Source of the DNA: a virus
Length of the DNA stretch: 64,000 nt
Reading direction: 5' to 3' (one strand)
IMG/VR virus record: IMGVR_UViG_3300033802_000277
Part shown: positions 3,001-52,794 of the stretch, piece by piece
Numbering within the stretch: position 1 is the stretch's first letter
Layout of the letters: the number at the start of each line of letters is the position of its first letter
Notes under the pieces: model-generated
Database searches by the model: none
Seen by the model: the letters and a program-made list of their open reading frames with translations, nothing else
Told to the model about the DNA's origin: nothing
Program-made: the position numbers and the translations under genes

Positions 3001-3437
3001 CACAAAGTTTCAGATAATACTTCATTTAATGCTTGTCGTGCATTTTTTGATTCTAAAACTACTCCACGCAATAATTTATCTCGAAGTTCATATCCAAGAG
3101 AAAAAGATTCTACGGTCATATAATCTTTATCTTCGTCCATGTTATTGTTAATTTTATTGATTATATATCTTTCTTTTTGAGTTCCAAATCTGACTTCAAG
3201 AATATAACGTTCACGAATTAGATCAACATTATGATTCCTCTGTAAAGTATGATTTATCTCAATTTCATAAGGCAAATGAAACGAAAACTCATTTAATGCA
3301 GCAAGTTTAACTTTTAATATTTTATTATAAGCCTCACTTAATTTACTTATAATTGTCCCATTAGGTTTTAATAAAAATATTTGTGGTTCAATTGGTTTTT
3401 TATTTTTATCAATTTCACCCAGTAAAATACTACTCAC
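1..3437 (-). CDS. Phage tail endopeptidase / tail-spike protein, partial (3' end beyond window)
   Basis: Absent from the ORF track because no stop lies in the window. Translated by hand from GTG at 3437 (SSILLGEIDKNKKPIEPQIFLLKPNG...) and still in the same frame at base 2 (...TKGIYIQRNGVDVFWADTNG). Follows Dit and contains MVTRLKAFGKD, typical of prophage tail proteins. Start codon uncertain. Confidence 0.85.
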   Translation of the reverse strand, partial: MSSILLGEIDKNKKPIEPQIFLLKPNGTIISKLSEAYNKILKVKLAALNEFSFHLPYEIEINHTLQRNHNVDLIRERYILEVRFGTQKERYIINKINNNMDEDKDYMTVESFSLGYELRDKLLRGVVLESKNARQALNEVLSETLWSIDVLDADFELTYRDFDFMSTTVLDAVFSIAETFNAIVKWDTIQRKISLIKPEYTGINRGIKFSYGHYLKTLGKESNADEMVTRLKAFGKDNLSIERVNPTGQNYIEDFSYFMFPFERDENRNVIQSSYYMSDSLCHAILDYHALIENNRNVFNNYLTQLEGLQAQLSQKEIEMDNLKRQESIINDIVLLQQYDNNMWFYKFTFNGSTVLETTKVNPNNAYVVLCKVSDTNNIVIKIDGIQQNLAAGQWVVLEKIKFSNFITHEVIGSATNTEVFIQIANITDEEYNTFSNENSLIEKYSLDNKQMQIAAKQNEINQIKQQISIVNGNIQSLKNLLSVENNFTPEQIQELNTYIIEREFIDENYIDDKDLYKAAQEKFEELRKPQTSFNIDIVNFFAIIEEQHNWNKLYLGDEVIIEYEKLGIKVKAKIIEIEYNFEDSNINLIIANVTEIDDDNKKLADYLKQSRNTSTKVDMGKYKWDQNGVDLGEISKILENFWNKVTNEINMANNEFVTIDRKGITIIDPNDQNRFLRATHGALALTRSGGLRYETAITPDGIIAERLFGKILLTNRVVIGDDDGILEITGPKATITDLCEREVMKFGLYQEDPDKFGILLNRYASTDCGDTNIINQIIVDRDDGFKILRKNGTDWDITAWLDTEGFFNGRGVKIDYMSGTLNNGIVLDNTNGLVITRSDGLYRTKLNATDGISIEKWNGSQWVKKFYVNILDSRLWVEDLVAKRLRIVNDLDDIMIDAETNYLNIGRFETIITDGKLTPIEKLTLKQEWETIQTEYQKLLYQAQQYEYSDRDGRTISHINIPPFTQAYINLGNYVNPLLANMEETTPVDREEFKQKFQSYYDQAKRIINEITDALKYSSVLLGVPYNRVTLDQTNGILVERSDNKYRSFFNATYGILLQKNVNGTWVDQFSVNSSDGVIEARGIRIFGSDVNMLNGVLTNGITIDPVNGIVVTRGDGVVRTVLNATKGIYIQRNGVDVFWADTN

Positions 3438-3440
3438 CTC

Positions 3441-4085
3441 CTATCCTTGTAAAAGTTTAAATTGATGTCTGAATTTAATATTTGCGTTTCCAATAACTCT
3501 AAGAACATTAACTCCGGGTAGTAACTCAAGATAATTATCATTAAAATTTTCATAGCGATATGTTGCTGCCAAACTCGTCTCAATTTGTTCACGATCTCCA
3601 TTAACATAAACTGTTTCTTGATCTAATAATCCAGTAAATTTAAATTCTTCGTTTCCCTTTGTCGTGTTAATTATTGATAAATCACCATTACCTATTTTGG
3701 TAATCCAAATTTCTGGACGAAGATTAATGTCTCCTTTATTATCATAATGAATAATTGGTTCAAAATAAAAATAAACACTTTGCAATGTCGGAGTAATATT
3801 TTTATCAATTGTTTTTTCTGTAACTCGATATTTAAGAACTGCATTTTTCATTGAAGTGTTTGACTTTATATCTGGAATAGAACCACCATTTGAAGCTACT
3901 TTCCAACCATTCCAGTCATATCCGCCATTAAAAGAAATATTTGTTTCAACTTTGATTGATGTTCCTTGAGGTAAGAGAGAATCCCAACTAATAGTTGAAA
4001 TTGCTCCATCTCCATCAAGTGATATTGCGAAATCAGGCGAAATGTAGTATCCACTTAATTTAGAAAAATGTTCCCATGTAGCCAT
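3441..4085 (-). CDS. Distal tail protein (Dit), C-terminal half
   Basis: C-terminus DNKGDINLRPEIWITKIGNGDLSIIN...RYENFNDNYLELLPGVNVLRVIG resembles the C-terminal domain of SPbeta-type Dit; has its own RBS (AAGGATGA) and ATG. Confidence 0.7.
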   Translation of the reverse strand: MATWEHFSKLSGYYISPDFAISLDGDGAISTISWDSLLPQGTSIKVETNISFNGGYDWNGWKVASNGGSIPDIKSNTSMKNAVLKYRVTEKTIDKNITPTLQSVYFYFEPIIHYDNKGDINLRPEIWITKIGNGDLSIINTTKGNEEFKFTGLLDQETVYVNGDREQIETSLAATYRYENFNDNYLELLPGVNVLRVIGNANIKFRHQFKLLQG

Positions 4086-4097
4086 ATAAAATCATCC

Positions 4098-4733
4098 TTA
4101 TTCTATTTTACCAAACGGTCTAAAAAGCGCAGAAATTCCAGATTCCTTCCATGTACAAATACGATATCCAGTCCAAACAACCATACCATCTGAAACAGTT
4201 CCACCGTCAACTAATGACCATACTGGTTCATTAGTTCCAGATACACCAGCAACAGTACAAACATAAAATCTATTATTGGACATAGAAGGAATGACAATTT
4301 CGTTTAATTGATAACTTTTTGAGGGTTGCCATATCGTTGCTCCTTGGATATCTTGTACGGTGCTTTCTGAGGAAACAGGAAAAATCGGCTCCACCGTTCC
4401 GCTTCTACCTGATTGTACACAAGTATAAAAATGCCCATTGTCTATCGTTGGAACAATCACATCGCCAACATTATAATTTGTTAACACAGACCATTTTGGC
4501 GCGGCAGTACCGCTTCTAACATTTACCCAACCTATATATGATCCGGATACTGGATTGACATTGTATACTTTTTTTGATATCTCCCATGTTCCGCTTGTTG
4601 GCGGATTACTCATATATATTTCAGCAACATCGTCAAGTTTTTTAAAATTATCACTTAAATCTATAATTGTTTGATGAATTTCATCGGTTAACGAAGGTCG
4701 AATTAATCCTAAATTTGGAGTAATAGTAGACAT
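4098..4733 (-). CDS. Tail-associated protein with two CBM5/12-like (W-x4-Y-x2-G/N-D/E-x-V) repeats
   Basis: WSVLTNYNVGDVIVP...FYTCVQSGRSGTVEP and WQPSKSYQLNEIVIP...FYVCTVAGVSGTNEP. The RBS GGGGTGGTGAG favours ATG 4733. Confidence 0.65.
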   Translation of the reverse strand: MSTITPNLGLIRPSLTDEIHQTIIDLSDNFKKLDDVAEIYMSNPPTSGTWEISKKVYNVNPVSGSYIGWVNVRSGTAAPKWSVLTNYNVGDVIVPTIDNGHFYTCVQSGRSGTVEPIFPVSSESTVQDIQGATIWQPSKSYQLNEIVIPSMSNNRFYVCTVAGVSGTNEPVWSLVDGGTVSDGMVVWTGYRICTWKESGISALFRPFGKIE

Positions 4734-4749
4734 CTCACCACCCCTTTTG

Positions 4750-5331
4750 TTATAAATCATTCCAAATCATTGTTGGAGATAAATTTATCCATTTTGTTTT
4801 ATTTGGATCTATTATTAAATCACCGTTAATATCTGTAATAAGATTATTAAATTCTCCTTGAGTAAAAGAATCTACTCCGAAATTAATAGGAGATTCATCC
4901 CACTGATATTCTTTTGTAAAATAAGGAGAATATGAATAAGGAGAATCACATCTCATTTGTATATTTACATATCCTTGTTTTAATCCGTTATGTAATAATT
5001 GAGAATCGGAAAATAACATACAATAAAAAATTCTTTCAGGATTATCCGATGTATAAAATGGACAATAATAATCTTTGTCTAACCATCTAGCAACTTCTCT
5101 AATTTTTAAATCATCATAATAGTCCTCGAATGCAAATGTTAAAGAAAAAACAAGGGGTGATCTTTTCACCCCTTGAAAATATGGTTTGTCTCTGCCCCTT
5201 ATTGATACTTCAATGATTTCTTTTTCAGCAACAAATGGCTCTTCAAAAAATCCAGAATCAATTTTGCAATTTATAACACCCATGTTTACTGAATAAATTC
5301 CGTCATAATAAAAATCTATTCCCTCTTTCAT
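4750..5331 (-). CDS. Distal tail protein (Dit), N-terminal half
   Basis: FYYDGIYSVNMGVIN...EEPF...PYFQGVKRSPLVFSL...IREVARWL...LLHNGLKQGY...MRCDSPYSYS; lies immediately after the tape measure gene. Confidence 0.8.
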   Translation of the reverse strand: MKEGIDFYYDGIYSVNMGVINCKIDSGFFEEPFVAEKEIIEVSIRGRDKPYFQGVKRSPLVFSLTFAFEDYYDDLKIREVARWLDKDYYCPFYTSDNPERIFYCMLFSDSQLLHNGLKQGYVNIQMRCDSPYSYSPYFTKEYQWDESPINFGVDSFTQGEFNNLITDINGDLIIDPNKTKWINLSPTMIWNDL

Positions 5332-5334
5332 ATG

Positions 5335-8300
5335 TTATATGACTCCCTTTCCCTTTAGGCGTTTTATAATAGTATTAGATACGTCTTCTGCTCCTTTTCT
5401 GTCGCCTATCACATTATCAATATTAATTACAATTTGATTTACAGCATTCTGATTCCCATTAGAATTCGTAAGCGGAGAAATTAATTTTGAAAAATCCATT
5501 AATCTTATTCCGTTTGCAATATTTCCGACAATATTATTAATTGGATTATTTTTTACAACAAGTTCTCCCAATTTTAAAATTGATAAACGTTCATCAGAAC
5601 CAAGATTAAGCATTTTATGTAATTTTTCAATTACAGGAGAACCTTTACCACCAACAATCCCACCGTTATGATATAATGGTAAATTATTTTTATACCAAAC
5701 ACCCTCAGCAGCATTATAAGTGGCTCCAATTTGTGATCCTAATTCTTGATTAGAACGTTCATAAGCGCTTCTCATGCTTGGATATTTGTGCCAAAGTTCG
5801 CTATTCATTTTCATTGATGCAATAATATTTCTTTCCTGATCATTCATTGGAATATAATAATTATTATTACTATTTCCAGTGTTTGAAGTTGTAACATTAA
5901 ACTTTAAATTACCAAGTTCTTTAAATTTCCTTATTAGTTCATCTACTTTTTTTATCAACGTATCGTTCAAGTTGTTAGCTATGTTTATGAATTCATTATT
6001 TAAAGACTGAGTAGCACTTACAAGTCCATTAGATAACCTGTTCATATTATCTAATAAATTATTTGAAATACTTTGACCAATTTCTCCACTATTCCTTAAT
6101 ATAAAGTTTTTAAATTCTTCAAATTTGGCTAATACATTTGATATATTTCCCTTCATTATTTCTTCGCGTATTTGATTGAATTCTCGTTCATTATTTATTA
6201 AATCATCGTAATATTGGTTGGTAATTTTTTTTAATTGATCCAATCTTTCTTTTTCTTTTTCAAAAGCCTGATCCTCTAATTCTTTTTGTTTATCCATATT
6301 TTTCTTTTTATCCTCTAATTGTTGTTGTAGATTTTTCTTTAATTGTTCCCTAGTTCTATTATTTTGAAATTCACTTATTTCTTCATTCTTTTCAGCTAAA
6401 CTTTTTTCTAATTCTGCTAATTCTGCTCTAGCCTCTTTGGAATTATTTAATCTTTTAACATCAATCTTTCTTTGAATCTCATCTCTTTCTTTAATTAATT
6501 CATTCAACCTTTTATTGTAATCTTCTTCGCTGGCCTGTTCATCAATAGCTTTTAATCTAGCATTGACAATTTCCTCATATTTACTTATTTCATCATCGAG
6601 CAATTTTATTTTTTCTTTATGTGCTTTATTAAGCGCATCCAGTTCATCTTCAATACCCTTAATTGCTATATCTCTTTGCTTTTCATACATTTCTTTATAA
6701 AAATCAATTACTTCATCTGCTAACTTTTTCGTTTGATCTTGCAATGATTTATTTGTATTTTTTATAGATGTAGCAATTTCAATTTGAGATAAAATAGATT
6801 GTCTCAATTGATCATTAAGTTTGCTCCATTCAGCCTCAGTAAGATTAACAGACTGCATTTGTTTACGAATAATTTGTTCGTGATTCTCTTCTGCTTTTAA
6901 TTTATTCTCTAATATTCTTACCTGATTTTGTAATTCATCAGAATATTCTTTTGAATTTTCTTCTAAAATTTTAAGTCGATCATTAGATATCGATAATTCG
7001 TCGTCATATTTCTTTACAACATCAGCAGCTTCATTAATTTGTGAATTTATTATTTCAAAATTTGTTTGAGAAATAACTTCATGAAAATCCCACCAAGAAT
7101 TTGACAACTCTCTAATTCGATCATTTAAAATTTTTGTTTGTTCTATTGTGAGATTACCATTTGCTAACTGCTCTCTAAGTGCTTCAGCTTCGTTATGAAC
7201 TATATCTTGCTTTTGTTTTAATAAGTCAATTTGTTTTTGTAATTCGTTTCTGTATTCTTGAGAAGTTTCATTGAATTTTTTGGTTTCTCGGTTTAATTCT
7301 TCAATTTGCTCATCTATATCTTCTAATTTCCTTTGAGTTTCATCCTTCAACAATTTATTAGTTTCTTCGAAAATACTATTAACATTTCTTAAAGATTCTT
7401 TAAAGTCATCAATCCAACTCGCTGATTTTTCATTTATTGCTTTATCTAAGTCTTCAAACAATTGAATATAGTAGTTAAATAACTCTTTTCTATTTTCAAG
7501 CCCTTGTTTTTGTTGTTCAAGTTGTGCTTTTATGGAATCAGATGTTTCACGACCAATTCTGTTATTCAAATTGTTTAATTGTTTTTCTAAATTATTTGCA
7601 TAATTAGCTATTTCTTCTTTTGATATATCTTCTATATTCCTACCTTGTCTAAAATCGGAAAAGTATTTGTCAAATTCAGGAATGATTTCGTTTTCACGTA
7701 TTGATCGAAGTTGTTCTGCAACTTCGTGATATTTATTCATTCGTTCTTCGAGAAGAGCGTTTAGTTGTTTTTCAAGTTCTATTCTTTTTGGAAGATCGCC
7801 TTCTAAATCAGCGATATCCATTTGATTTTTAGTGTCTAAAATTTGCTCATTTAGTGATTTTAATTGGTTTTCTGCGTCTTGAATTTGCTCTTTGAAAGTG
7901 GGTAACAAATTAAGGATTCTATCTATAAAAGTTCGTTCTTTAGAGGAACTAGAACCACTAGAAGTTCCGGCTTCCCTAAGACCAATACTCGATGCTTGTT
8001 TTAATGCCTCTATAGTTTTTAAATATTCATCTAACTTATCAACATTAGCCAAAGTTCTTAATCTTTTATCTCTTTCTACCATGTAGGCAGCAAAATCAGC
8101 GCCGAAACCAGTTCCACTTTCATCTATCATGGAATTGATTTGAGTATTCAAATCATCTAATTGTAGTAATAATTCTGCCTTTGCTTTTCCTACTTCTTTA
8201 ATACTTTGTATTTGAATACCATACATTTCAAGTTCTGCATTCAAAGCGTTCCTCATTTTTTCAAGTTCTTGTTCTCTCATGTTTAAACTATCTTGGAACG

Positions 8301-35799: not shown

Positions 35800-36150
35800 A
35801 TGGATTTTAGAGAACAATGGGAGAAAGTGGATATGGACTTTATGAAGCAACTTATTAAGATTCATAACGAAATTGTAGTGGGGGAAAGAGAAGAAAACGA
35901 TTTTGATGAGTTTGTGTTGGAGAATAAAGAGAAATTCAATAATCCTGATTATCTTCAGGTTTTTGCAAAAAGAATAGAATTAACAGATGAATATTTTGCA
36001 AAGCACTTTGAGATGTGTGAGTTTGTTTGGAAATTTATGAGAAAGAACCCTGATTGGAAAAAGTTAGATTTTAATTTGTCAGATTATCTTATTTTAGGGT
36101 TGTTTGAAGATACATTTGGGACATATTATATTTTTCATGTGAAAATTTGA
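35800..36150 (+). CDS. Hypothetical protein
   Basis: 116 aa with RBS GGAGATGA. Confidence 0.65.
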   Translation: MDFREQWEKVDMDFMKQLIKIHNEIVVGEREENDFDEFVLENKEKFNNPDYLQVFAKRIELTDEYFAKHFEMCEFVWKFMRKNPDWKKLDFNLSDYLILGLFEDTFGTYYIFHVKI

Positions 36151-36165
36151 TGGATAGCTAGATTG

Positions 36166-36193
36166 ATTCTCCGCCTGACGGCGGAGAATTTTA
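36166..36193 (+). terminator. Intrinsic terminator ending the replication operon
   Basis: ATTCTCCGCC-TGAC-GGCGGAGAAT-TTT. Confidence 0.7.
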
Positions 36194-37389
36194 CTTTGAC
36201 AGGTGGAGTGTAGATGTTAGGACGAATTTTGAGGTTAAATTTTCTGATAAAAATAATAAAAATTTGGAGGTGTAATTGATGGGGAATAGGAATATACCGG
36301 GGTGATGGGTTAGTGTAAAAAATTAATTATTTTTGTGTAGAAAAAATATAAAGATATGGTTGGGTGGGATTTTGTGTGAACAAGGCGAGTATAGGCAAGG
36401 TTACGGATACGTATTTTAAGACGCAAAATATAAATAAAAATAGTGGAAATTTGAATGGGAAATAACTTGGTAATGGTTTTATACCAGACTTGGGTTAATA
36501 CGTTTCAGAATGTCAATATGGGCGTCTGGTGAGGTGATGGATAGGGGAGTTAGAAATAAACAAGATGAAAGATGAGTGAAGTGTGAATCGTGAAAGTTTA
36601 ATTAGAAGTTGGGATTTAAGGAAAAATTAAGTAAAAGTGCAGGGAGAGAAAAACGGAGGAAAGTTGTTGGTAGATATGAGGATTGGGGAATGATTGACGA
36701 TCAATGGGTATTATAAGTTTCGTTGTTGAGATTGGGTGAACGAGTGAAAATTTATGGAGATCAAGAGGTTTTGAAAGATTTGAGAAGAAGTTTGATGGAT
36801 TGGATCGATAATGATATCGTAAAAGTTGCTGATTGGTATTGGGTTTGGGTGGGAAATTTGATGGAAAATTGAGATTTTATGAAAAAATGGGAAAATTGGC
36901 GGTGGTAAAAATCGGTTGAAAATAAGCAAGTTTAGCGAAACGCGCACGATGCGCGATGCGATGTGCGAGAAGGCGGGAGGAGGGTGAATCGGTGTAAATC
37001 CGAGTATACCTGTCGGAATAGAAGTGCTGTGGCCGTTTTAGAAAAAAATGGAAGAAATAGAAATGTAAACTATCCCCCCTCTTTTCAAAATGGGATGGCA
37101 AACATTGTAAAAATCAAGTCATATCATACGTTATGAACGGATATTGGGAAAAGATGGGAATTTAGAAAATGAGGAAAAGTTGATCTGTTAGATTGGGATA
37201 GTAACTAATTAAAATAAAGCGACTAAATAAAAATACACAAATCGAAAAATACAATGCGCTATTTTGATTAACCATAAAACCTACTAAAAACATCGGAATA
37301 GTAACAAAAACGCGCTGGCGCAACACTTATTAAAACTCATTGTAATAATTTTTCTTTAAAATTTTAAAAACAAAATATTAAAAAAACCA

Positions 37390-37418
37390 TTGACAAATAT
37401 ACAGTTTTAACTTATTAT
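37390..37418 (+). promoter_or_regulatory. SigA promoter opening the early accessory region
   Basis: TTGACA-17bp-TATTAT with an A-rich UP region. Confidence 0.75.
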
Positions 37419-37424
37419 TATATT

Positions 37425-37780
37425 AGAAATTAATACTAAGCACCTAGACCAAACACCAGTCCGTAACGCGCAGCTTGATAGCGGGCTAACTGTTGCGGCG
37501 GTCGATCCTTGACAAATAAATATCAGTCATTAGCGGTTACCCTAGCCCGCAGTATCAAAAGGGTACGCGACACAGCGCGGCAGCACGTGGCAGGAATTGG
37601 GAAGCCTGTCACGGCGACTATATGAGCAACGGCGAACGTCAAAAAAGGCGCTACGTGGCTATCTCACGTTGAAACGCTACGCCGCACGATGTATCATATA
37701 GGCACGGTAGGAGTCCGGCACAACACCCAAGACAGCAACAAGGCGATATCACGATCATCATGATTTACATCGCCTTTTGT
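37425..37780 (+). ncRNA. Unidentified structured leader RNA
   Basis: GC-rich, ORF-free island right after the promoter, with several complementary segments (see findings). Confidence 0.55.
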
Positions 37781-37860
37781 CTGTCTTTTGTGTTCCATTT
37801 GGAAATTTTAACCAAGGGAACAGAAAAGACAGACAAAAGCCTGTCTAAAAACCAAAATAT

Positions 37861-37876
37861 TGTTCCACGTGGAACA
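37861..37876. promoter_or_regulatory. parS: parS (Spo0J/ParB binding) site
   Basis: TGTTCCACGTGGAACA, a perfect palindrome close to the TGTTNCACGTGAAACA consensus. Confidence 0.85.
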
Positions 37877-37897
37877 ATTTAAAAGGAGTGTTTGTCA

Positions 37898-38119
37898 ATG
37901 CTTATGAATATCATTGCCGAAAAAGCCGCTAAACTGGCCTGCCAATTTGATCAAGATACTGGCTTTGAAATTTATAAAAATGAGTATCTTGATCAGTTGA
38001 CTGAAAAGTCACACCAATATTGGTTGCGCCAATGGATCGGAAATTTGGTCGAGGAGGGGAACAAAGAAGCAATCGAAATAATGAAGCTTATTATTCGTTT
38101 CAATTTGTCTCCCGCCTGA
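37898..38119 (+). CDS. Early hypothetical protein
   Basis: 73 aa; RBS AAAGGAG favours ATG 37898. Confidence 0.65.
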   Translation: MLMNIIAEKAAKLACQFDQDTGFEIYKNEYLDQLTEKSHQYWLRQWIGNLVEEGNKEAIEIMKLIIRFNLSPA

Positions 38120-38169
38120 TGATGGCTCGGTGGCTCCGGGCCGAATCCGGCAGCTTGCCGGTAGCGGGA
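38110..38169 (+). ncRNA. Type I hammerhead-like ribozyme with non-canonical core
   Basis: UCCCGC-CUGAUGA-U-GGCUCGG(UGGCU)CCGGGCC-GAA-U-CCGGC(AGCUU)GCCGG-UA-GCGGGA. Confidence 0.55.
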
Positions 38170-38194
38170 AGCCGCATAAAAGCAACGAGTTTAA

Positions 38195-38255
38195 TTTATT
38201 GCTTTTTAGCTCACATAACAGTTCCGTTGTGTGAGCAATAAAGGCAATAAATGCC
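38195..38255 (+). repeat. Intergenic hairpin family (CAUAAC/GUUGUG inner stem, UAAAGG outer stem), copy A
   Basis: Related copies at 38510-38570, 39098-39169 and 39821-39882; partial copies at 38742-38787, 42387-42420 and 46097-46135. Confidence 0.7.
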
Positions 38256-38280: not shown

Positions 38281-38505
38281 ATGTACGGAATTAAAGTAAA
38301 AACCTATTTTTATCAAGGCACTATCGGAGTGCCTCAAAAACCATTTATTGTAAAAAAGTTTCCCACTCGCGAAGAAGCTGTTCGCTGGCTGGAGGAATCC
38401 AGTCTCGAACAAACGGACAAAAACGAATGGAAGCCAGCAGGAACGTATTATCTTAGGCATGGCGAATATGCCAGACCAACATACTCTATTGTTGGTTGCC
38501 GATGA
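38281..38505 (+). CDS. Early hypothetical protein
   Basis: 74 aa with RBS AAGGAGG. Confidence 0.7.
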   Translation: MYGIKVKTYFYQGTIGVPQKPFIVKKFPTREEAVRWLEESSLEQTDKNEWKPAGTYYLRHGEYARPTYSIVGCR

Positions 38506-38591
38506 TTTATTTATTGCTTTTAAGACCGCATAACACTATGTTGTGCGGTCCATAAAGGCAATAAATTGCCATAAAAACAATATATTAATAA

Positions 38592-38607
38592 TGTTTCACG
38601 TAAAACA
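38592..38607. promoter_or_regulatory. parS: Second parS-like site
   Basis: TGTTTCACGTAAAACA, one mismatch to consensus. Confidence 0.65.
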
Positions 38608-38629
38608 TTTCTAGAAAGGAGTGAAAAAA

Positions 38630-38719
38630 ATGCGCTCTAAAATAGTCATTCTTACCTCTCGTATGGAGAGGTTGAAAAAGCTGAAAGATTCCTATCTTTA
38701 CGGTTATCTCATGTGGTAA
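38630..38719 (+). CDS. 29-aa peptide
   Basis: MRSKIVILTSRMERLKKLKDSYLYGYLMW with RBS GAAAGGAG; below the ORF-track cutoff. Confidence 0.45.
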   Translation: MRSKIVILTSRMERLKKLKDSYLYGYLMW

Positions 38720-38819
38720 CTGTGGTAGCGTAAAGCTACCACTTAAAAACAAGCCCATAACAGATAGGTTATAGGTTTGTTTTTAAGTTTTAATTACATA
38801 ACAGGAGGAATTAAAATTT

Positions 38820-39098
38820 ATGCGCATGTCGAACCGTGAAATCATCGCTAATGAGTTGCTTTTTCGTGGAATCAATTTTCCCTATGATGGGAACAATCTT
38901 CTCACTTATCAAGAGTGGAAAAAGCGCGGTTTTTACGTCCGAAAAGGCGAAAAAGCATTTTTGCAAGTTCCCTTGTGGACTCCGTGCCAAAAGGTTATCG
39001 AAAAAGATGGAAAGGAGGAAATACAAACATATTTTATCATGAAAAAAGCCAGCTTGTTCACTCATGAACAAGTAGAAAGAATAGCACAAACAGCATAA
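38820..39098 (+). CDS. ArdC N-terminal-like ssDNA-binding protein
   Basis: LLTYQEWKKRGFYVRKGEKA...LW...LFTHEQVE resembles the ArdC/DUF1738 motif pattern. Confidence 0.6.
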   Translation: MRMSNREIIANELLFRGINFPYDGNNLLTYQEWKKRGFYVRKGEKAFLQVPLWTPCQKVIEKDGKEEIQTYFIMKKASLFTHEQVERIAQTA

Positions 39099-39199
39099 AT
39101 TATAACCTTTTCGACTCCATAACAGCTTTATATAGTTGTTGTGGAGCCTATAAAGGTTATAATTTAACCTTTGATTTCTTTCACTATGGAGGGGAAAAT

Positions 39200-39529
39200 A
39201 TGCAAAAGAAGCTTATTATCAATATCCGTCCAATCATTTCCAGTTTACTTAAAGATTGGGACGGAGAAGGAAAGCAAAGTCAGTATATTAAACATAACAA
39301 AAAAATCATATTTGAATATATCGAAAATCTTATCAATGATATTTCGCTTCCGTATGATTTACAGTATAAAAATAAATACAAACTAGATATCGAAAATAGA
39401 GAAGTAATAGTCATATTCACATGGACAGAAGAAGAAAATATTTATGATTGGAGCGAAAGAATGAAGCGTAATTTGCAAGTTATTTCTGATTATATTTGGC
39501 AAAAAGGTTTAACTTGTATAATCGCTTAA
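39200..39529 (+). CDS. Early hypothetical protein
   Basis: 109 aa with RBS GGAGGGG; has a disrupted paralog at 44163. Confidence 0.7.
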   Translation: MQKKLIINIRPIISSLLKDWDGEGKQSQYIKHNKKIIFEYIENLINDISLPYDLQYKNKYKLDIENREVIVIFTWTEEENIYDWSERMKRNLQVISDYIWQKGLTCIIA

Positions 39530-39530
39530 T

Positions 39531-39601
39531 GTCGTCCCGGCGACTATAAACAGCGCATTAAGCCGGGAGCGTTAACCGCCATTTATGGCGGTTAGGTTGC
39601 G
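39531..39601 (+). ncRNA. Pistol ribozyme 1
   Basis: P1 GUCG-UCCCGG-CGAC, UAUAAACAG, P2 CGCA/UGCG, UUAAG-CCGGGA-GCG (pseudoknot to the P1 loop), P3 UUAACCGCC/GGCGGUUAG, scissile G39596-U39597. Confidence 0.9.
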
Positions 39602-39629
39602 ATATATTTATAACAGGGAGGCATTCGTA

Positions 39630-39812
39630 ATGCAAATTAAAATAACTGATTATTCCGATTCTCATTATTTAGTTATCGTTACCACTCGTAAAGGATATTC
39701 CTATGCTACAACATGGGCAAAAATGAATAACCCATTAGCAGAACAAGAAGTAAAACAAGCTTGGAAAGAGAATAGAAAAAACTTTGATCCTTGGTATGGT
39801 ATACTGCAATAA
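39630..39812 (+). CDS. Early hypothetical protein
   Basis: 60 aa from ATG 39630 (RBS GGGAGG), just 3' of pistol 1. Confidence 0.65.
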   Translation: MQIKITDYSDSHYLVIVTTRKGYSYATTWAKMNNPLAEQEVKQAWKENRKNFDPWYGILQ

Positions 39813-39909
39813 AAGTATAATTTTATAACCTTTACAGACTCCATAAATAAATGTTTGTGGAGTCGATAAAGGTTATAAAACCTAATTATATAACAGGAGG
39901 TTATTTAAA

Positions 39910-40053
39910 ATGCGAACAAAAAAGTGGTATCAAATTTATGGTACTGCGCCAGACGGAAAAGAATATTTATTGGCAAAGGTTAACAGTAAAGGAAATGCTT
40001 ACATTGTTGCGGAAGCTTTAAAAGCAAGTTATAAAAATGTATCTATAAAATAA
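39910..40053 (+). CDS. 47-aa hypothetical protein
   Basis: MRTKKWYQIYGTAPDGKEY..., RBS AGGAGG; below the ORF-track cutoff. Confidence 0.55.
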   Translation: MRTKKWYQIYGTAPDGKEYLLAKVNSKGNAYIVAEALKASYKNVSIK

Positions 40054-40107
40054 AAAAATAAGAATGATTTGATTTTATTTTTTAAAATAAATTATTAATA
40101 AAGGAGA

Positions 40108-40758
40108 ATGATAACTATGACCATGAAGAAAGTTTATGAGGAAGCAGTCCAAAAAATCCAAGCAGGAGGAAAATATACTTTATTTGGTTATAACAGTTTT
40201 GGTTTTCCGGTTATTATGCATACAACTATTCATAAGGCGTATATCGGATCATATGCACAATATAATCATACTTTAGTCATCGAACACCAACCAAAAAGAA
40301 AACGAACGGTTTACAAACAGCATTTGTTACCAGATGAAACGTTTATTTTATGGGAAGGATGGTTAAATATCGATAATAGCGATTTTTGGAAGACAGAAAG
40401 ACAAGAAGAAGTAACAGTCCGCAAAAGTCGTTTAGCGTTCGATAATCAATATATTAGGGAAAAATTGCAAAATGTCAAAGTTAAACCTATAGCAATCCTT
40501 GATCGTGATTATCACATTAATGTAAATAAAATTGAGTTTATTTATCAAGTAGTAACAGAAGATGGTTCGGAATACTATACGTTTGACGAGTTGTTTTCTA
40601 AATATAATTTTGTCGATTTGAACAAGCGCGGAAGAATTGAATTGCATAACCAACCTTGCATTGCTGGTCTTATCGGCCCAATGTGGGGAGGATACGAGGA
40701 CGGGAAAGCAGTAATTCGTTACGAAACACAAGAAATGTATCAATTAATGTCTAATTAA
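40108..40758 (+). CDS. Early hypothetical protein
   Basis: 216 aa with RBS AAAGGAG. Confidence 0.75.
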   Translation: MITMTMKKVYEEAVQKIQAGGKYTLFGYNSFGFPVIMHTTIHKAYIGSYAQYNHTLVIEHQPKRKRTVYKQHLLPDETFILWEGWLNIDNSDFWKTERQEEVTVRKSRLAFDNQYIREKLQNVKVKPIAILDRDYHINVNKIEFIYQVVTEDGSEYYTFDELFSKYNFVDLNKRGRIELHNQPCIAGLIGPMWGGYEDGKAVIRYETQEMYQLMSN

Positions 40759-40772
40759 ACATAAAATATATA

Positions 40773-40848
40773 ACACGTCTGGGCGTGTCTAAACAGCGCC
40801 TTAAGCCGGGAGCGTTTAGAGGCCGTTATATCAGCCTCTAAAGTGGTG
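40773..40848 (+). ncRNA. Pistol ribozyme 2
   Basis: P1 ACACG-UCUGGG-CGUGU, CUAAACAG, P2 CGCC/GGUG, UUAAG-CCGGGA-GCG, P3 UUUAGAGGC/GCCUCUAAA, scissile G40843-U40844; pseudoknot has one G-G mismatch. Confidence 0.82.
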
Positions 40849-40893
40849 ATAACAGCCAAAATATTACATAATGTTTAACAGGAGGTTGTAAAA

Positions 40894-41064
40894 ATGTCTC
40901 GCACAGTAAAAGCTATCGTCCGTATCAACGGACGCGAAACGCAAGTTGAATATTATCTGCCGCGCATGCACTTGTGGCAGACAATCGAAACGATTAAAAA
41001 GCAGGTGCAGCAGGACTATGACCTCATGCACTATGAGGTGTCATTTATTCGTTTTGTCGATTAG
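40894..41064 (+). CDS. 56-aa protein flanked by two pistol ribozymes
   Basis: MSRTVKAIVRINGRETQVEYYLPRMHLW..., RBS AGGAGG. Confidence 0.6.
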   Translation: MSRTVKAIVRINGRETQVEYYLPRMHLWQTIETIKKQVQQDYDLMHYEVSFIRFVD

Positions 41065-41135
41065 TCGTCCCGGCGACTCTAAACAGCGCCTTAAGCCGGG
41101 AGCGCCTAACCGCTTTAACAGCGGTTAGAGTGGCG
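41063..41135 (+). ncRNA. Pistol ribozyme 3
   Basis: P1 AGUCG-UCCCGG-CGACU, CUAAACAG, P2 CGCC/GGCG, UUAAG-CCGGGA-GCG, P3 CUAACCGCU/AGCGGUUAG, scissile G41130-U41131. Confidence 0.9.
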
Positions 41136-41169
41136 AACAAGACATAATATTTACATGGAGGAATGTTTC

Positions 41170-42369
41170 ATGCAAACAAAACAATACGTATTGAATCGCG
41201 AAACGGGAAAGGTTGAATTGCACTTTGAAAAATCAGAATACCAATCTTTAACAGAACAACAAAAAGCAGAATTAAAGCGGTTTTTTCTTTGGAGTCCGTC
41301 CCGTTCTGCTTGGGTGTCTAGAAGCACAAATAATCACTATATGGCTATTCGGATTGCTGAAAAATTGGGCTTTACTGATGGCGGAAAAATAGGCGAAAGA
41401 CTTTCTTTTGCCGAACAATTGGAAAGAAAAGCAGAAAAAGCGGAAGCACGTGCGGAACGTTACGAAAAATATGCAGAAAATGCAGAAAAACGCGCGGAAA
41501 TGTTGCAAGCAGAAATGAACGAGCATTTACGAAATCATGACATTGCTTTTTTCACTCAACCGATCATTGCAGGACATGCTGGTTCGGAACGGTTCGCGCG
41601 TCAACGGCAACGGATTTATGATCGTTATCATAAAGGTTTTGAAGAATATCGCAAAAGTGAATATTTCCGACAAAAAGCCATGACAGCGCAGCAAACGGCG
41701 AGTATGGCGCAATTAAAAGACAAGACATATCTTAATAACAGAATCGAGGAATGCAACGCAAACATTCGTAAATATGAAAAATTGATTGTAACAGCAGAAG
41801 AACAAAATAACGAGAAATGGTTAGAGAGTTTACTTGAAAAAATGGAGTATGAAATAGATAAGCTTGCATTTTTTCAAAATTGTTTGGATGAATTGGGAGG
41901 TATACAATACAACAAAGATAACATAAAACCCGGTTATCTCGTCAAAATTCGTGGTTATTGGGATGTTGTAGTAAAAGCAAATACAAAAACCGTCGAAGTA
42001 AAATCGTCTTATGTTCCGTATACATTGAAATATCCATATGCGGAAATTCAGGAAGTGAAAATTCCTGAAAACTGGACAGAACAAAAACAAATAATTGAAA
42101 ATCCATTCAATGTTGGCGATATCTTAGTGCGTCATAACGTTGCCGGAAATATTATAATAGCAGCTTTTAAGGTTGTAAAAGTAACAGAAAAAAGCGTAAC
42201 TATTCAGCAAATTGCCATTGAAGACGGAAAACCCATTAAAGATAAATTTATAAACGACAAGCAGGAAAGGAGGCAAATAAAAAAGAATACTAAAAACGAA
42301 TACGTCGTTAATTATGATAATTGGTATTTGTATCCTTACAAACAAAAAGAAAACGAACAAAGCGCATAA
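41170..42369 (+). CDS. DUF3560-like domain protein
   Basis: KAEARAERYEKYA...QPIIAGHAGSERFARQRQRI...KSEYFRQKA resembles DUF3560; RBS GGAGGA favours ATG 41170. Confidence 0.65.
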   Translation: MQTKQYVLNRETGKVELHFEKSEYQSLTEQQKAELKRFFLWSPSRSAWVSRSTNNHYMAIRIAEKLGFTDGGKIGERLSFAEQLERKAEKAEARAERYEKYAENAEKRAEMLQAEMNEHLRNHDIAFFTQPIIAGHAGSERFARQRQRIYDRYHKGFEEYRKSEYFRQKAMTAQQTASMAQLKDKTYLNNRIEECNANIRKYEKLIVTAEEQNNEKWLESLLEKMEYEIDKLAFFQNCLDELGGIQYNKDNIKPGYLVKIRGYWDVVVKANTKTVEVKSSYVPYTLKYPYAEIQEVKIPENWTEQKQIIENPFNVGDILVRHNVAGNIIIAAFKVVKVTEKSVTIQQIAIEDGKPIKDKFINDKQERRQIKKNTKNEYVVNYDNWYLYPYKQKENEQSA

Positions 42370-42496
42370 TAATTACAAGCTATTTAGTCCGCATAACAGG
42401 TTTAAGCTTGTTGTGCGGACAATACATTAAAAACAATATATTAATAATGTATCATTTAAAACATATTTAAATTAATAACAATGAGGAGGAATAAAA

Positions 42497-42847
42497 ATGA
42501 AAAAATATCCGATTAAAAGGGAAATTCTGGAAAATTTGCGATTTAATTCTCCGTATACTTGCGAAGAGGATGAAAGATATCCATCTGAATTTTATTTTGG
42601 AGGAAAAAGGATATATCTTTCTCTATACGTTAGCAGTTTTGGTGAAAGATGGTTCAAAGAAAAAGGAGTATCTTTGGCGATAACAATAAACGATTATGAT
42701 AAGGAGGTATTTATATCTATTTACACACATATGAAACTTTATAAAAAAATCATTAGAGAAGAAGGTTATTTAATCAATCTGATCGAAGATAAGAATTATA
42801 TCATTGATGAAAGAGAAGGGGAAACGGGAGAAATATTTTTGATTTAA
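42497..42847 (+). CDS. Hypothetical protein
   Basis: 116 aa with RBS GAGGAGG. Confidence 0.7.
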   Translation: MKKYPIKREILENLRFNSPYTCEEDERYPSEFYFGGKRIYLSLYVSSFGERWFKEKGVSLAITINDYDKEVFISIYTHMKLYKKIIREEGYLINLIEDKNYIIDEREGETGEIFLI

Positions 42848-42980
42848 AAAATAAATATTATCCTTTCCGCACTTGCGGAAAGGATAATAAACTTTTATCA
42901 TAAAGAGAATGATATTTTACAGTAAAATACTCATTTCATGGGATATAATAGATAATAATAAACCTATGGAGGGAGTTTAT

Positions 42981-46069: not shown

Positions 46070-46155
46070 CAGCGATATATAAACAACCAATAACAGCACA
46101 CTCCCATAATATCATATGGTATTATGGGAGTGTGTAACAAAGGAGATATGATCGA

Positions 46156-48168: not shown

Positions 48169-49233
48169 ATGAGCAAAAATCTTGGAGAAAAATTTAAAGA
48201 AGCTTTGGCGCGTATCGAAGAAATTGAAAAGTCAAAGCGCGACGTGCTTATTAAGCCCAGTAACTTACATATGGATAACAGAGGATCGCTTCATATCGAC
48301 GGACTTGGGCCAATCGATTTCACAAAAACAGGATTTCAACATTTTTGCATGAAAGCAGATTTGCCATCCAGCTATATGATGAAATTATTGGACACTGATG
48401 GAAAATCTGCTTCAGAAATTGAAGAGGATTTAGAAACGTTCAAAATCAACATGAGGCGCGGTTTGAATCGCCTCAAAGAAGACAAAGAGTATTTCTTCCG
48501 CACAATTCAACATGGTAACAGCAATAAGTTTAGAGTGCGGGCAATCTTTTCGGACAACTACAAAGTGTATGACAATCTGCCAATTTTAAAACAATTGCAA
48601 AATTTTGACGGAGAAAGACTTGAAACACAAGGATTTTCGGTTACAAGTGATTTCATGGATATCCGCTTTACGTTACCTGATTTAAAAACTTCAATTGGAA
48701 AATTGCCACAACATGAAGTACGTTTTGGTGTAACAGACGATATCATCTTTCCCGGTATTCACTTACGAAACAGTGAGACGGGAGGAAGTAAGATTAAGGG
48801 CAGATTTATTATCTATCGCCTTGTTTGCACAAATGGTTTATCCAATCCAAGACATGAATTCACGATAATTGATCAAAAGCACATGGGGGATTTCGACGTA
48901 ACAGAAATTAATGATCGTTTAGGAAGCATAACAGTAGAAGCCAAAAGTCTGTTCAATAATTATGTTGATAGAATACAAGACGCAAAAACAAGAACGGCAG
49001 AACCAGATGAAATATTTAATTTTATCCAAAATAGAAAAAGTATCACTAAGAAAATGACTGAAGTAGTCCGAAAAAATTGGGAAACTGAGCAACGAATGGG
49101 GAGAACAAAATTCGACTATATTAATGCAGTAACAGCAGGTGCTAGAGATTGGGAAAATGAAACTAAAGATTACACTGGAAGGCTTAATTTAGAGGATGTT
49201 GCAGGAGAGTTGTTATTTAGTAAGGCAATTTAA
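48169..49233 (+). CDS. DUF932-like protein
   Basis: GIHLRNSETGGSK...YRLVCTNGL...KHMG resembles the DUF932 motif. Confidence 0.65.
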   Translation: MSKNLGEKFKEALARIEEIEKSKRDVLIKPSNLHMDNRGSLHIDGLGPIDFTKTGFQHFCMKADLPSSYMMKLLDTDGKSASEIEEDLETFKINMRRGLNRLKEDKEYFFRTIQHGNSNKFRVRAIFSDNYKVYDNLPILKQLQNFDGERLETQGFSVTSDFMDIRFTLPDLKTSIGKLPQHEVRFGVTDDIIFPGIHLRNSETGGSKIKGRFIIYRLVCTNGLSNPRHEFTIIDQKHMGDFDVTEINDRLGSITVEAKSLFNNYVDRIQDAKTRTAEPDEIFNFIQNRKSITKKMTEVVRKNWETEQRMGRTKFDYINAVTAGARDWENETKDYTGRLNLEDVAGELLFSKAI

Positions 49234-51681: not shown

Positions 51682-52794
51682 ATGGAACAAGTATTGGCGT
51701 TAGAAGAAAATGTTAGCGTAAAGGAAGGAAATCAGGTTGCTTATGACGAAAATATGTTTGAAAAAGAAGGGAGTGTTACTCAGGTGGGAACTGTTGAAAA
51801 TATGTCTTTGAGAGAACGGATTGAAAAAGAAAGAATCGCTAAACAGCCAGCGATTCAAATTGGATTGCGGTCGTTAGTTAAAAATCCTTCAAAGTTAAAT
51901 TTCAATCTTGTGATTCAGCGTAATCTTCGTTGGACACGCGAACAGAAAAGTTCTCTTATTGAATCTGTTATTTTGGGATATCCGATTCCAGCAATATATT
52001 CGATCAAAAGCGAAGATAATAGCTTGTGGGTGTTGGATGGAAAACAAAGATTGACTACGCTTATTAGCTTTTGCAAAGACGAATGGGAATTAAGTGAATT
52101 ACCAAACGCTTTTGGTGTTGATATTACTGGAAAAAAATTCTCAGAACTTCCTGAGGAGTTTCAAGAGTTTTTTGATGAACTAACATTGACGTTTTATCAA
52201 TTTGAGCGACTTACCATAGATCAACGAGATCAATTGTTTAAGCGACTTAACAGTGGAACACCGCTTTCAGCAATAGAACTAACACGTTCTATTCTTGGTT
52301 CTGAGTGGTTAGAATATATTGATAGCATAGCGCAAAAACCATTTTTTGAAATGGCGGCATTAACTGATAACCAGCGTGACAAATTTGTTGATCAGGAATT
52401 AATTTTACAGGTAATTGGTTTGGTTACTGGAAGACTAAATGATATGAGTAGCAAACACGTAAGAGAATTTTCAATCGATTTACGTGTTAATGGGATGTCG
52501 GATGATGACAAGAAGAAAGTTTCTGATGTATTCGATTATTTAACAGACGCATTCGGAAATCTGGAAGAAAAACACAGAAAGAAAATACTTAAGAAAAATG
52601 ACATTATTGGATTGGCTGGTGCTGCTGCTGAATTGATGAACGATATCGATGCAGACACATTTGGCAGAAGAACCGCTTCATTGATTGTGAAAAATACTGG
52701 ATCGTATAGAGATACAAAAACGAGCGGTAGCGCCAAGGAATCTAATGTTAAGAAGCGTATTCAACTTTTGATTCAAGCAGTAAAAGAAGAATAA
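51682..52794 (+). CDS. DUF262 (ParB-like/GmrSD N-terminal) protein
   Basis: IQRNLRW...SSLIESVILGYPIP...VLDGKQRLTTL...LFKRLNSGTPLS. Confidence 0.8.
   Translation: MEQVLALEENVSVKEGNQVAYDENMFEKEGSVTQVGTVENMSLRERIEKERIAKQPAIQIGLRSLVKNPSKLNFNLVIQRNLRWTREQKSSLIESVILGYPIPAIYSIKSEDNSLWVLDGKQRLTTLISFCKDEWELSELPNAFGVDITGKKFSELPEEFQEFFDELTLTFYQFERLTIDQRDQLFKRLNSGTPLSAIELTRSILGSEWLEYIDSIAQKPFFEMAALTDNQRDKFVDQELILQVIGLVTGRLNDMSSKHVREFSIDLRVNGMSDDDKKKVSDVFDYLTDAFGNLEEKHRKKILKKNDIIGLAGAAAELMNDIDADTFGRRTASLIVKNTGSYRDTKTSGSAKESNVKKRIQLLIQAVKEE

Follow-up and report, generated by a model that had tools for sequence, protein, structure and literature searches.

Why would a bacteriophage place three self-cleaving ribozymes in 1.6 kb of one gene array, and what would their cleavage accomplish? 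This question is raised by a 64-kb stretch of viral DNA (IMG/VR record IMGVR_UViG_3300033802_000277, the whole of which is referred to here as the window), in which three copies of the pistol ribozyme, numbered 1 to 3 from left to right, lie between small genes at 39530-41135 (Table 1). We consider it likely that each of the three cuts itself while an early operon is being transcribed, or shortly afterwards, and that separate mRNAs result. The evidence comes from the identity and covariation of the three elements, from the unusual pseudoknot and hybrid make-up of copy 2, and from the occupants of the same intergenic slots in related phages.

Identity and covariation of the three elements

The whole window was scanned against Rfam 15 using cmscan, where the pistol family is RF02679 with a gathering score of 34.5 bits. 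Exactly three matches exceeded this score, all on the + strand: copy 1 at 39530-39601 (66.2 bits, E = 7.5e-10), copy 2 at 40773-40848 (59.7 bits, E = 2.3e-8) and copy 3 at 41063-41129 (38.4 bits, E = 1.8e-3). The low score of copy 3, an element that itself extends to 41135, arises because the model left its last 6 nt unaligned, the closing pair of P3 being C.A and not U.G. A permissive Rfam scan, with E up to 1, added no other ribozyme family in the window. A preliminary description of this DNA had claimed three pistols in 1.6 kb, cut at 39596/7, 40843/4 and 41130/1. The check with the RF02679 model returned all three above threshold, the proposed cuts agree with the scissile G-U positions, and every detail of the layout then given (P1 with a 6-nt loop, linker, P2, UUAAG, CCGGGA, GCG, P3 and GU) is present in the sequence.

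The P1 helices are 4, 5 and 5 bp long (GUCG/CGAC, ACACG/CGUGU and AGUCG/CGACU in copies 1, 2 and 3), and each closes a 6-nt loop, UCCCGG in copies 1 and 3 and UCUGGG in copy 2. The linker (A/CUAAACAG), whose AAA is present in all three copies, is followed by P2, which reads CGCA/UGCG in copy 1, CGCC/GGUG with one G.U pair in copy 2 and CGCC/GGCG in copy 3. UUAAG, the pseudoknot strand CCGGGA and GCG are found in every copy, and the P3 stems are three different ones of 9-10 bp. Copies 1 and 3 form a perfect pseudoknot of 6 bp (in copy 1, UCCCGG with CCGGGA). Relative to the Rfam consensus, one extra G stands between linker and P2 in all three copies.

Among the three copies, two pairs of P1 are altered on both sides (G-C to C-G and U-A to A-U), one pair of P2 changes on both sides (A-U to C-G) and another on a single side (G-C to G.U), and P3 of copy 2 is a different helix from those of the other copies. 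Related pistols were collected from IMG/VR by pattern search, and 32 distinct ones were aligned with the pseudoknot written into the architecture. Standard pairs are formed by 95.4% of the cells, compared to 67.9% in column shuffles, and the observed covariation score was reached in 0 of 500 shuffles; when partners were slid by 1-3 columns, only 35-45% were paired. Two-sided changes occur in 16 of the 20 pairs, including 4/5 pairs of P1 (96.3% paired), 4/4 of P2 and 3/4 of the counted pairs of P3. The compensatory changes that the preliminary description had noticed thus hold both among the three copies and across the 32 phage pistols. The AAA of the linker, UUAAG (with A32 and G33), GCG (G40, C41 and G42) and the scissile G-U are invariant across the same alignment, the three window copies included; catalytic roles are known for the conserved core residues, among them G40 as the general base (PMC6795133). 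The closing pair of P3 is U.G in 25 of the 32, and C.A in copy 3 and two others. With a pattern that left the two central pseudoknot positions free on both strands, 37 distinct pistols were obtained, and the central dinucleotide is Watson-Crick matched in 35 of them, in 10 different pair combinations.

A subfamily covariance model built on the 32 aligned pistols covers each of the three copies over its full length, with scores of 74.1, 71.8 and 70.7 bits, the highest belonging to copy 3 (41063-41135), although these scores are circular, as the window copies had been used to train it. No such circularity attaches to the lack of a fourth copy: with filters off, the model found no further copy or relic in the 64 kb, where the next-best score was 9.7 bits. 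To the notion that the likeness to pistols is accidental, or that the elements are just common hairpins or terminators, we give next to no credence, as the E-values of copies 1 and 2, the 70-74 bits of the three copies against at most 9.7 bits across the rest of the 64 kb, and the joint presence of pseudoknot, P1, P2, P3 and invariant catalytic nucleotides count against it, and it is effectively refuted by the Rfam matches, the covariation and the subfamily-model search. By the criteria of sequence and structure, the three elements are genuine pistol-class ribozymes, and self-cleavage is predicted at the three G-U sites.

The mismatched pseudoknot and hybrid make-up of copy 2

Copy 2 had been suspected of a weakened pseudoknot, and this is borne out. 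Its loop UCUGGG stands opposite CCGGGA, which brings a U40780.G40809 wobble and a G40781xG40808 mismatch into the middle of the pseudoknot and leaves four Watson-Crick pairs. The mismatch is the sole non-paired cell among the 192 pseudoknot cells of the 32-pistol alignment; it is also the sole true pseudoknot mismatch among the 37 pattern-matched pistols, one other of which has a G.U pair. The duplex energy of the pseudoknot is -5.8 kcal/mol, compared to -10.1 kcal/mol for copies 1 and 3, and the matched UCUGGG/CCCAGA pseudoknot of the nearest relative has -8.6 kcal/mol. The minimum-energy fold recovers the pseudoknot helix for copies 1 and 3 but not for copy 2, whose z-score is -1.19. No CCCAGA partner for the copy 2 loop is found on the + strand within 39.0-42.5 kb.

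Fast cleavage is expected of copies 1 and 3. For copy 2 we expect, though not with certainty, slow cleavage or none: in the L. sphaericus pistol, activity drops substantially when mutations break the pseudoknot and is rescued by compensatory ones (PMC4604425), and natural twisters, which put up with many helix imperfections, do so least in their pseudoknots (PMC11662667). In the strict form of this expectation, only pistols 1 and 3 would be active and copy 2 would be a dead or near-dead recombination relic; the transcript would then fall into three pieces, with the 56-amino-acid (aa) gene that lies between pistols 2 and 3 still joined to the three preceding genes. We take this possibility seriously, although we hold it to be less likely than not. 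The mid-pseudoknot mismatch and wobble, unique by both counts, the low duplex energy and the missing helix in the fold speak for a dead copy 2, as do the published mutants, the additional G.U in P2 and a P3 closing pair that is U-A rather than U.G. However, the catalytic nucleotides, P1, P2 and P3 are intact and Rfam still awards 59.7 bits; the four Watson-Crick pairs and the wobble persist, and an adjacent G-C can lengthen the helix, giving -8.8 kcal/mol for the duplex with its flanks. The tolerance of natural twisters, even if lowest in pseudoknots, points the same way.

Comparison with the nearest record, IMG/VR contig 3300025534_000182 (G001; 73 kb, estimated 49% complete), indicates how the mismatch may have arisen. 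G001 carries two pistols, A after a homologue of the 109-aa gene that precedes pistol 1, and B directly upstream of a DUF3560 gene like the one that follows pistol 3. Copy 1 and pistol A are identical at 71 of 72 positions, whereas the adjacent gene is merely 79% identical. Copy 2 has an exact 27-nt run in common with pistol B (P1, loop and linker) and a second exact 27-nt run in common with copy 3 (linker, P2 strand, UUAAG, pseudoknot strand and GCG), the two runs overlapping by 12 nt. Copy 3 in turn has P1 and loop as in pistol A (16/16), and P3 and downstream flank as in pistol B. Pistol B aligns both with copy 2 and its flanks (40748-40865) and with copy 3 and the DUF3560 gene (41066-42943, 94%), such that a single G001 pistol corresponds to two paralogous hybrids in the window, with the orphan 56-aa gene between them.

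These alignments are most simply read as recombination in the conserved ribozyme core that inserted the 56-aa gene, or deleted it in the other lineage, with one crossover falling between the copy 2 P1 loop and its pseudoknot partner. We propose that loop and pseudoknot strand of copy 2 are mismatched because the copy is such a hybrid. A search of metagenome contigs with its P3-stem pattern, aimed at the donor of the 3' half, returned 22 loci, all of them plain hairpins and none a pistol; with no donor found, a double-crossover donor model for copy 2 is unconfirmed.

The limits of homology lie close to the ribozymes. Homology of the window with G001 and with a further relative, L010, ends at 39602/39603, 1-2 nt beyond pistol 1; G001 and L010 also diverge from one another straight after their own copies of pistol 1, and the window and G001 then continue with different genes. 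Across the 1.2-2.2 kb that separate the outer pistols, the genes of the window and of G001 are unrelated. DNA contigs reproduce only the G001-type joints 39603/39821 and 39879/40771, and are probably not independent of G001. Among the internal ends of high-scoring segment pairs (HSPs) of at least 200 bp, 15 of 61 lie within 15 nt of a pistol, zones that make up 1.2% of the sequence, but these ends are not independent (reciprocal pairs, three related genomes), and the enrichment is about two-fold against an intergenic-only null. As proof of a role in recombination, the breakpoint enrichment was set aside as merely suggestive, since the ends are dependent and phage joints are intergenic anyway.

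Probable early-transcript processing and its alternatives

The same intergenic slots can be followed through the relatives. After its homologue of the 109-aa gene, L010 carries a pistol with a compensated pseudoknot (UUCCGG with CCGGAA) and compensated changes in P3, a pattern of substitutions that marks structure as the object of selection at a fixed site. Just upstream of the DUF3560 gene, the window and G001 both have a pistol. L017 (IMGVR_UViG_3300024999_000035) has a twister-P5 (RF02684, 53.5 bits, 3902-3966) in this slot, beginning directly behind a stop codon and leaving ~35 nt to the start of the DUF3560 orthologue, and L014 has a long hairpin there. Because an unrelated ribozyme class replaces the pistol at the same place before orthologous genes, the exchange argues that the cut itself, not the sequence, would be the selected property.

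Clusters of pistols were also observed elsewhere. L184 (IMGVR_UViG_3300027043_000028) contains six in 4 kb (306-4313), L171 three in 1.7 kb (4856-6535) and L190 two together with a twister-P5 (8424-11606); L174, L175, L186, L188, L191, L194 and G001 have two each. Three pistols in 1.6 kb are therefore not very unusual, arrays of two to six being readily found in IMG/VR phage contigs. A single unannotated pistol, arranged as in the window, is present in each of the Bacillus phages PBC4 (NC_070843.1 64969-65039) and Chotacabras (MN153503.1 155940-156008). The two score 73-74 bits and lie in a gap among small hypothetical genes of the same strand, beginning 3-14 nt behind the preceding stop codon. 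As both phages are in culture, the function of the ribozyme is genetically testable there. No RF02679 match was found in 151 sampled Bacilli genomes and 4 genomes with DUF3560 relatives, which is weak evidence, as scoring was limited to ~31 candidates in each genome and the controls gave no signal. The pattern AAACAGCGCNTTAAGCC gave mainly chance matches in genome contigs.

In the window, all three pistols are encoded on the same strand (+) as the genes around them and occupy gaps in that gene array. Pistol 1 starts at the base next to the preceding stop codon, pistol 2 starts 14 nt after one, and the first 2 nt of pistol 3 overlap the TAG stop of the 56-aa open reading frame (ORF). More widely, 38 of 52 phage pistols start from -10 to +20 nt relative to a same-strand ORF stop (median 4.5 nt), and in the 30 of 52 that have a Shine-Dalgarno (SD) site and a start codon at most 200 nt downstream, the median gap from ribozyme 3' end to start codon is 33 nt. 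Such spacing need not reflect a switch and may simply come from tight packing in compact genomes. No convincing + strand terminator was found between the promoter-like site at 37390-37418 and 42856.

From this arrangement we infer transcription as a single RNA, cleavage in vivo and an effect on expression. One rightward early transcript, probably starting at 37390-37418, would carry all three ribozymes, and each would cut at its G-U site, with 33-50 nt left before the following start codon. Four RNAs are predicted: one up to G39596, one of 1247 nt with three small genes, one of 287 nt with the 56-aa gene (if copy 2 works), and the DUF3560 mRNA onward. The upstream pieces would end in a compact, pseudoknotted ribozyme with a 2',3'-cyclic phosphate, and the downstream pieces would start with a 5'-OH just before a strong SD site. 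The likely benefit would be processing that is independent of host RNases, uncoupling the stability and translation of neighbouring early and anti-restriction-type genes.

Several points weigh against this interpretation. The promoter at 37390-37418 is a consensus match only, and among the public runs that contain this DNA, none is recorded as RNA. Nothing is detectable in the DUF3560 slot of L010-L013, L015, L016 and L018-L021; the ribozyme slot is dispensable, as these relatives do without one there. No pistol is present in E3, Sundance, KKP_3916 or FADO, which are relatives in culture. RNase J1 can be drawn to a 5'-OH end in Bacillus, as for the glmS cleavage product, and by analogy cleavage might destabilise the downstream RNA instead of stabilising it. 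The mismatched copy 2 may also remain active, natural twisters tolerating many imperfections (PMC11662667).

Alternatively, the ribozymes may persist mainly as repeated homology patches for the exchange of gene cassettes, similar to the promoter and stem-loop (PeSL) cassettes of T4-type phages, with cleavage adding little or no fitness. This would agree with the stop of homology to G001 and L010 just past pistol 1, the unrelated genes between the outer pistols, the alignment of pistol B to both copies 2 and 3 on either side of the orphan 56-aa gene, the two exact runs of different origin in copy 2, and the HSP ends gathered near pistols. However, invariant catalytic nucleotides and four covarying helices are needless for a DNA patch, a non-homologous twister sits in the same slot of a relative, and the intergenic position of phage joints, the dependence of the HSP ends and the two-fold enrichment reduce the weight of the breakpoints. 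We regard exchange as the main role as unlikely, although a homology patch and a site of cleavage are not mutually exclusive.

A milder form of the idea is compatible with processing of the transcript. The hybrid copy 2, the exchange of pistol and twister and the sharp junctions together suggest that ribozyme cores may double as crossover points for cassettes. Extended further, pistols, twisters and long hairpins could be interchangeable intercistronic 'punctuation' that moves with early gene cassettes, with cores of ~25 nt (linker-P2-UUAAG-pseudoknot strand-GCG) as the crossover points and copy 2 as a fresh scar, its loop and partner uncoupled, that selection has yet to repair or remove; we offer this extension as a tentative and rather doubtful conjecture.

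It is also conceivable, but very improbable, that an RtcB-type ligase closes the 287-nt RNA (U40844-G41130) end to end, giving a circular mRNA that encodes the 56-aa protein. RtcB uses 5'-OH and 2',3'-cyclic phosphate ends, which the pistol products would bear, and the 56-aa gene is flanked exactly by two pistols. Against this, the upstream of the two pistols is the impaired copy 2, and Perreault et al., who examined hammerhead arrays for spliced or circular products, detected none (PMC3088659).

Genetic setting and known counterparts

The ribozymes, the genes next to them and the candidate promoter are collected in Table 1.

Table 1. Positions of the pistol ribozymes and of neighbouring features in the window.
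Feature	Position	Strand	Details
Pistol 1	39530-39601	+	P1 39531-34/39541-44; loop 39535-40; P2 39554-57/39598-601; cut G39596/U39597
Pistol 1 core	39558-95	+	UUAAG 39558-62; pseudoknot strand 39563-68; GCG 39569-71; P3 39572-95
Pistol 2	40773-40848	+	P1 40773-77/40784-88; loop 40778-83; P2 40797-800/40845-48; cut G40843/U40844
Pistol 2 core	40806-42	+	Pseudoknot strand 40806-11; GCG 40812-14; P3 40815-42
Pistol 3	41063-41135	+	P1 41063-67/41074-78; loop 41068-73; P2 41087-90/41132-35; cut G41130/U41131
Pistol 3 core	41096-129	+	Pseudoknot strand 41096-101; GCG 41102-04; P3 41105-29, closing pair C41105.A41129
Candidate early promoter	37390-37418	+	TTGACA-17-TATTAT; 11/12 matches; best + strand site in 35.5-44.5 kb
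109-aa gene	39200-39529	+	No assigned function; TAA stop 39527-39529 adjoins pistol 1
60-aa ORF	39630-39812	+	First gene of pistol 1-2 segment; SD AGGGAGG 39615-21; predicted post-cleavage leader 33 nt
Intergenic hairpin	39821-39880	+	27-nt arms; kept in G001 as isolated island between unrelated genes
47-aa ORF	39910-40053	+	No family (Pfam, PHROG)
216-aa ORF	40108-40758	+	Start perhaps 40118; end 14 nt before pistol 2; no Pfam/PHROG family
56-aa orphan ORF	40894-41064	+	Between pistols 2 and 3; SD AGGAGG 40880-85; predicted post-cleavage leader 50 nt
DUF3560 gene (399 aa)	41170-42369	+	ATG 41170; SD GGAGG 41157-61; first after pistol 3; predicted leader 39 nt

The 109-aa gene matches no Pfam or PHROG family, and an IMG/VR search returned only G001; gene and pistol 1 together are common to G001 (79% DNA identity) and L010 (81%). 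The sole family signal of the 60-aa ORF is a weak DUF4028 match below the cut-off, and the 216-aa ORF is without counterpart in G001. For the 56-aa protein, 5.8 billion proteins contain no homologue besides itself and IMG/VR contains none; it is absent from G001. The DUF3560 gene matches Pfam PF12083 (49.5 bits), with relatives at 9 IMG/VR loci and in 4 Firmicutes genomes (Brevibacillus, Paenibacillus and a Bacillus species). Between its two pistols (L009 ~1760-2400), G001 has other small genes, including a putative toxin-antitoxin pair, recognized by eye as a DUF4258-like ORF followed by a zinc-finger ORF.

The window is siphophage-type DNA of ~31% GC, with structural genes on the - strand at 1-31 kb and, from 31.2 kb on, an integrase, a RecD2-like helicase and many small genes on the + strand. 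The large terminase shares 73% identity with its counterpart in Geobacillus virus E3 (141 kb); with the terminases of phages such as Brevibacillus phage Sundance and Bacillus phage FADO, identity is 43-46%. On the basis of the terminase and the structural module, the window probably belongs to a large, uncultured E3/SPbeta-like siphophage of Bacillales. Phyllosphere metagenome runs contain window DNA, and a bioreactor run contains a relative; megablast of 38500-42500 gave no match in cultured phages. Same-strand domains near the pistols are ArdC-N (38820-39098), DUF3560 (41170-42369), DUF932 (48169-49233) and GmrSD-N (51682-52794), and an ankyrin-repeat protein is also among the genes there. 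This set recalls the anti-restriction 'leading regions' of conjugative elements, here in the early region of a phage. From its gene content, the pistol-bearing block appears to be an early, anti-defence-flavoured gene array.

Nearly every gap of the early block is filled by a structured element, either a pistol or a long hairpin. Long hairpins with arms of 16-27 nt occupy other gaps of the + operon at 38202-38243, 38517-38557, 39821-39880, 42387-42420, 42856-42889 and 46097-46134, and several of them have a CAUAACA...UGUUGUG core in common. They may be RNase III-type processing sites or 3'-end elements equivalent to the ribozymes. A hammerhead-like element was noted at 38110-38170 (+), composed of CCCGC, CUGAUGA with an extra U, a 7-bp stem II, GAA followed by U at the expected A15.1, stem III, UA and GCGGG; a TGA inside it is the stop of gene 37892-38119. 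Its G001 orthologue (L001 minus strand, ~2870-2790) reads CUGACGA-U ... GAAAC ... GGGAGUC, with a canonical A15.1/U16.1 and a GUC site. Neither gave an Rfam hammerhead match even at E<=10 in searches of 2-3 kb. Further upstream, ~1.7 kb (36150-37880) has no ORF longer than 78 aa and a GC content raised to 0.37; it includes the promoter-like site and an ~85-nt near-perfect hairpin (37763-37850) with weak microRNA-precursor-like matches. This region may be a structured leader or origin-like.

RNase III sites process the early mRNA of phage T7. Like these sites, the pistols of the window are proposed to provide intercistronic cuts that yield gene-length mRNAs ending in a stable 3' structure. In T7, however, an enzyme makes the cut and leaves 5'-phosphate and 3'-OH ends, while the predicted self-cut in the window would leave 5'-OH and 2',3'-cyclic phosphate ends. 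Long hairpins and ribozymes fill equivalent gaps in the window operon and in its relatives.

With the published pistol ribozymes (RF02679; Weinberg et al. 2015; Harris et al. 2015, PMC4604425), the window copies have the same architecture in common: a 6-nt loop on P1 that forms a 6-bp pseudoknot with the P2-P3 junction, a linker containing AAA, a 4-bp P2, UUAAG and GCG with A32, G33-C41, G40 and G42, a P3 hairpin and the G-U site. Crystal structures of the env25 pistol are discussed in PMC6795133. Both sets are linked to Firmicutes and phages, and the differences from a typical pistol, namely the pseudoknot mismatch of copy 2, the C.A pair closing P3 in copy 3 and the extra G before P2, are none of them differences in kind. 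Pistols cleave at ~10 per min and are found near phage genes and other ribozymes (PMC4604425).

The closest precedent for the arrangement is that of Perreault et al., whose 2011 study described prophage transcripts in which multiple hammerheads flank single genes or short blocks; in Agrobacterium tumefaciens, three of them surround the anti-restriction gene ardA. Cleavage was demonstrated both in vitro and in vivo, and the authors likewise proposed processing into gene-length mRNAs (PMC3088659). In those arrays and in the window alike, several ribozymes lie within ~2 kb of one polycistronic phage RNA (a predicted one in the window), flanking variable single genes or short blocks with anti-restriction-type genes nearby (here ArdC-N and DUF3560). 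The class differs, the former being hammerheads with demonstrated cleavage and the latter pistols with predicted cleavage. The PeSL cassettes of T4-type phages (Arbiol et al. 2010, PMC2839356) are also similar in that short repeats stand between small, non-essential early genes and mark sites where orphan genes are inserted, deleted or replaced. A PeSL is a promoter and terminator stem-loop and no ribozyme, and its recombination, including mini-circles, has been shown experimentally, whereas recombination in the window is deduced from one hybrid ribozyme and a few genome comparisons.

The locus is valuable as a natural, closely matched set of intact and pseudoknot-mismatched pistols within what would be one transcript, and as a source of sequence-level evidence that ribozyme cores may be places of recombination for phage gene cassettes. 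The role of nearly all self-cleaving ribozymes of bacteria and phages is still unknown (2019 review, PMC6765202). The ribozyme class and its clustering in phage operons are already published (PMC4604425, PMC3088659, PMC6765202), and this locus adds no new class; beyond these known systems, what is new here is the G-G mismatch of copy 2, its hybrid make-up, the ends of homology at pistol 1, the exchange of pistol and twister in one slot and the common occurrence of pistol arrays in IMG/VR.

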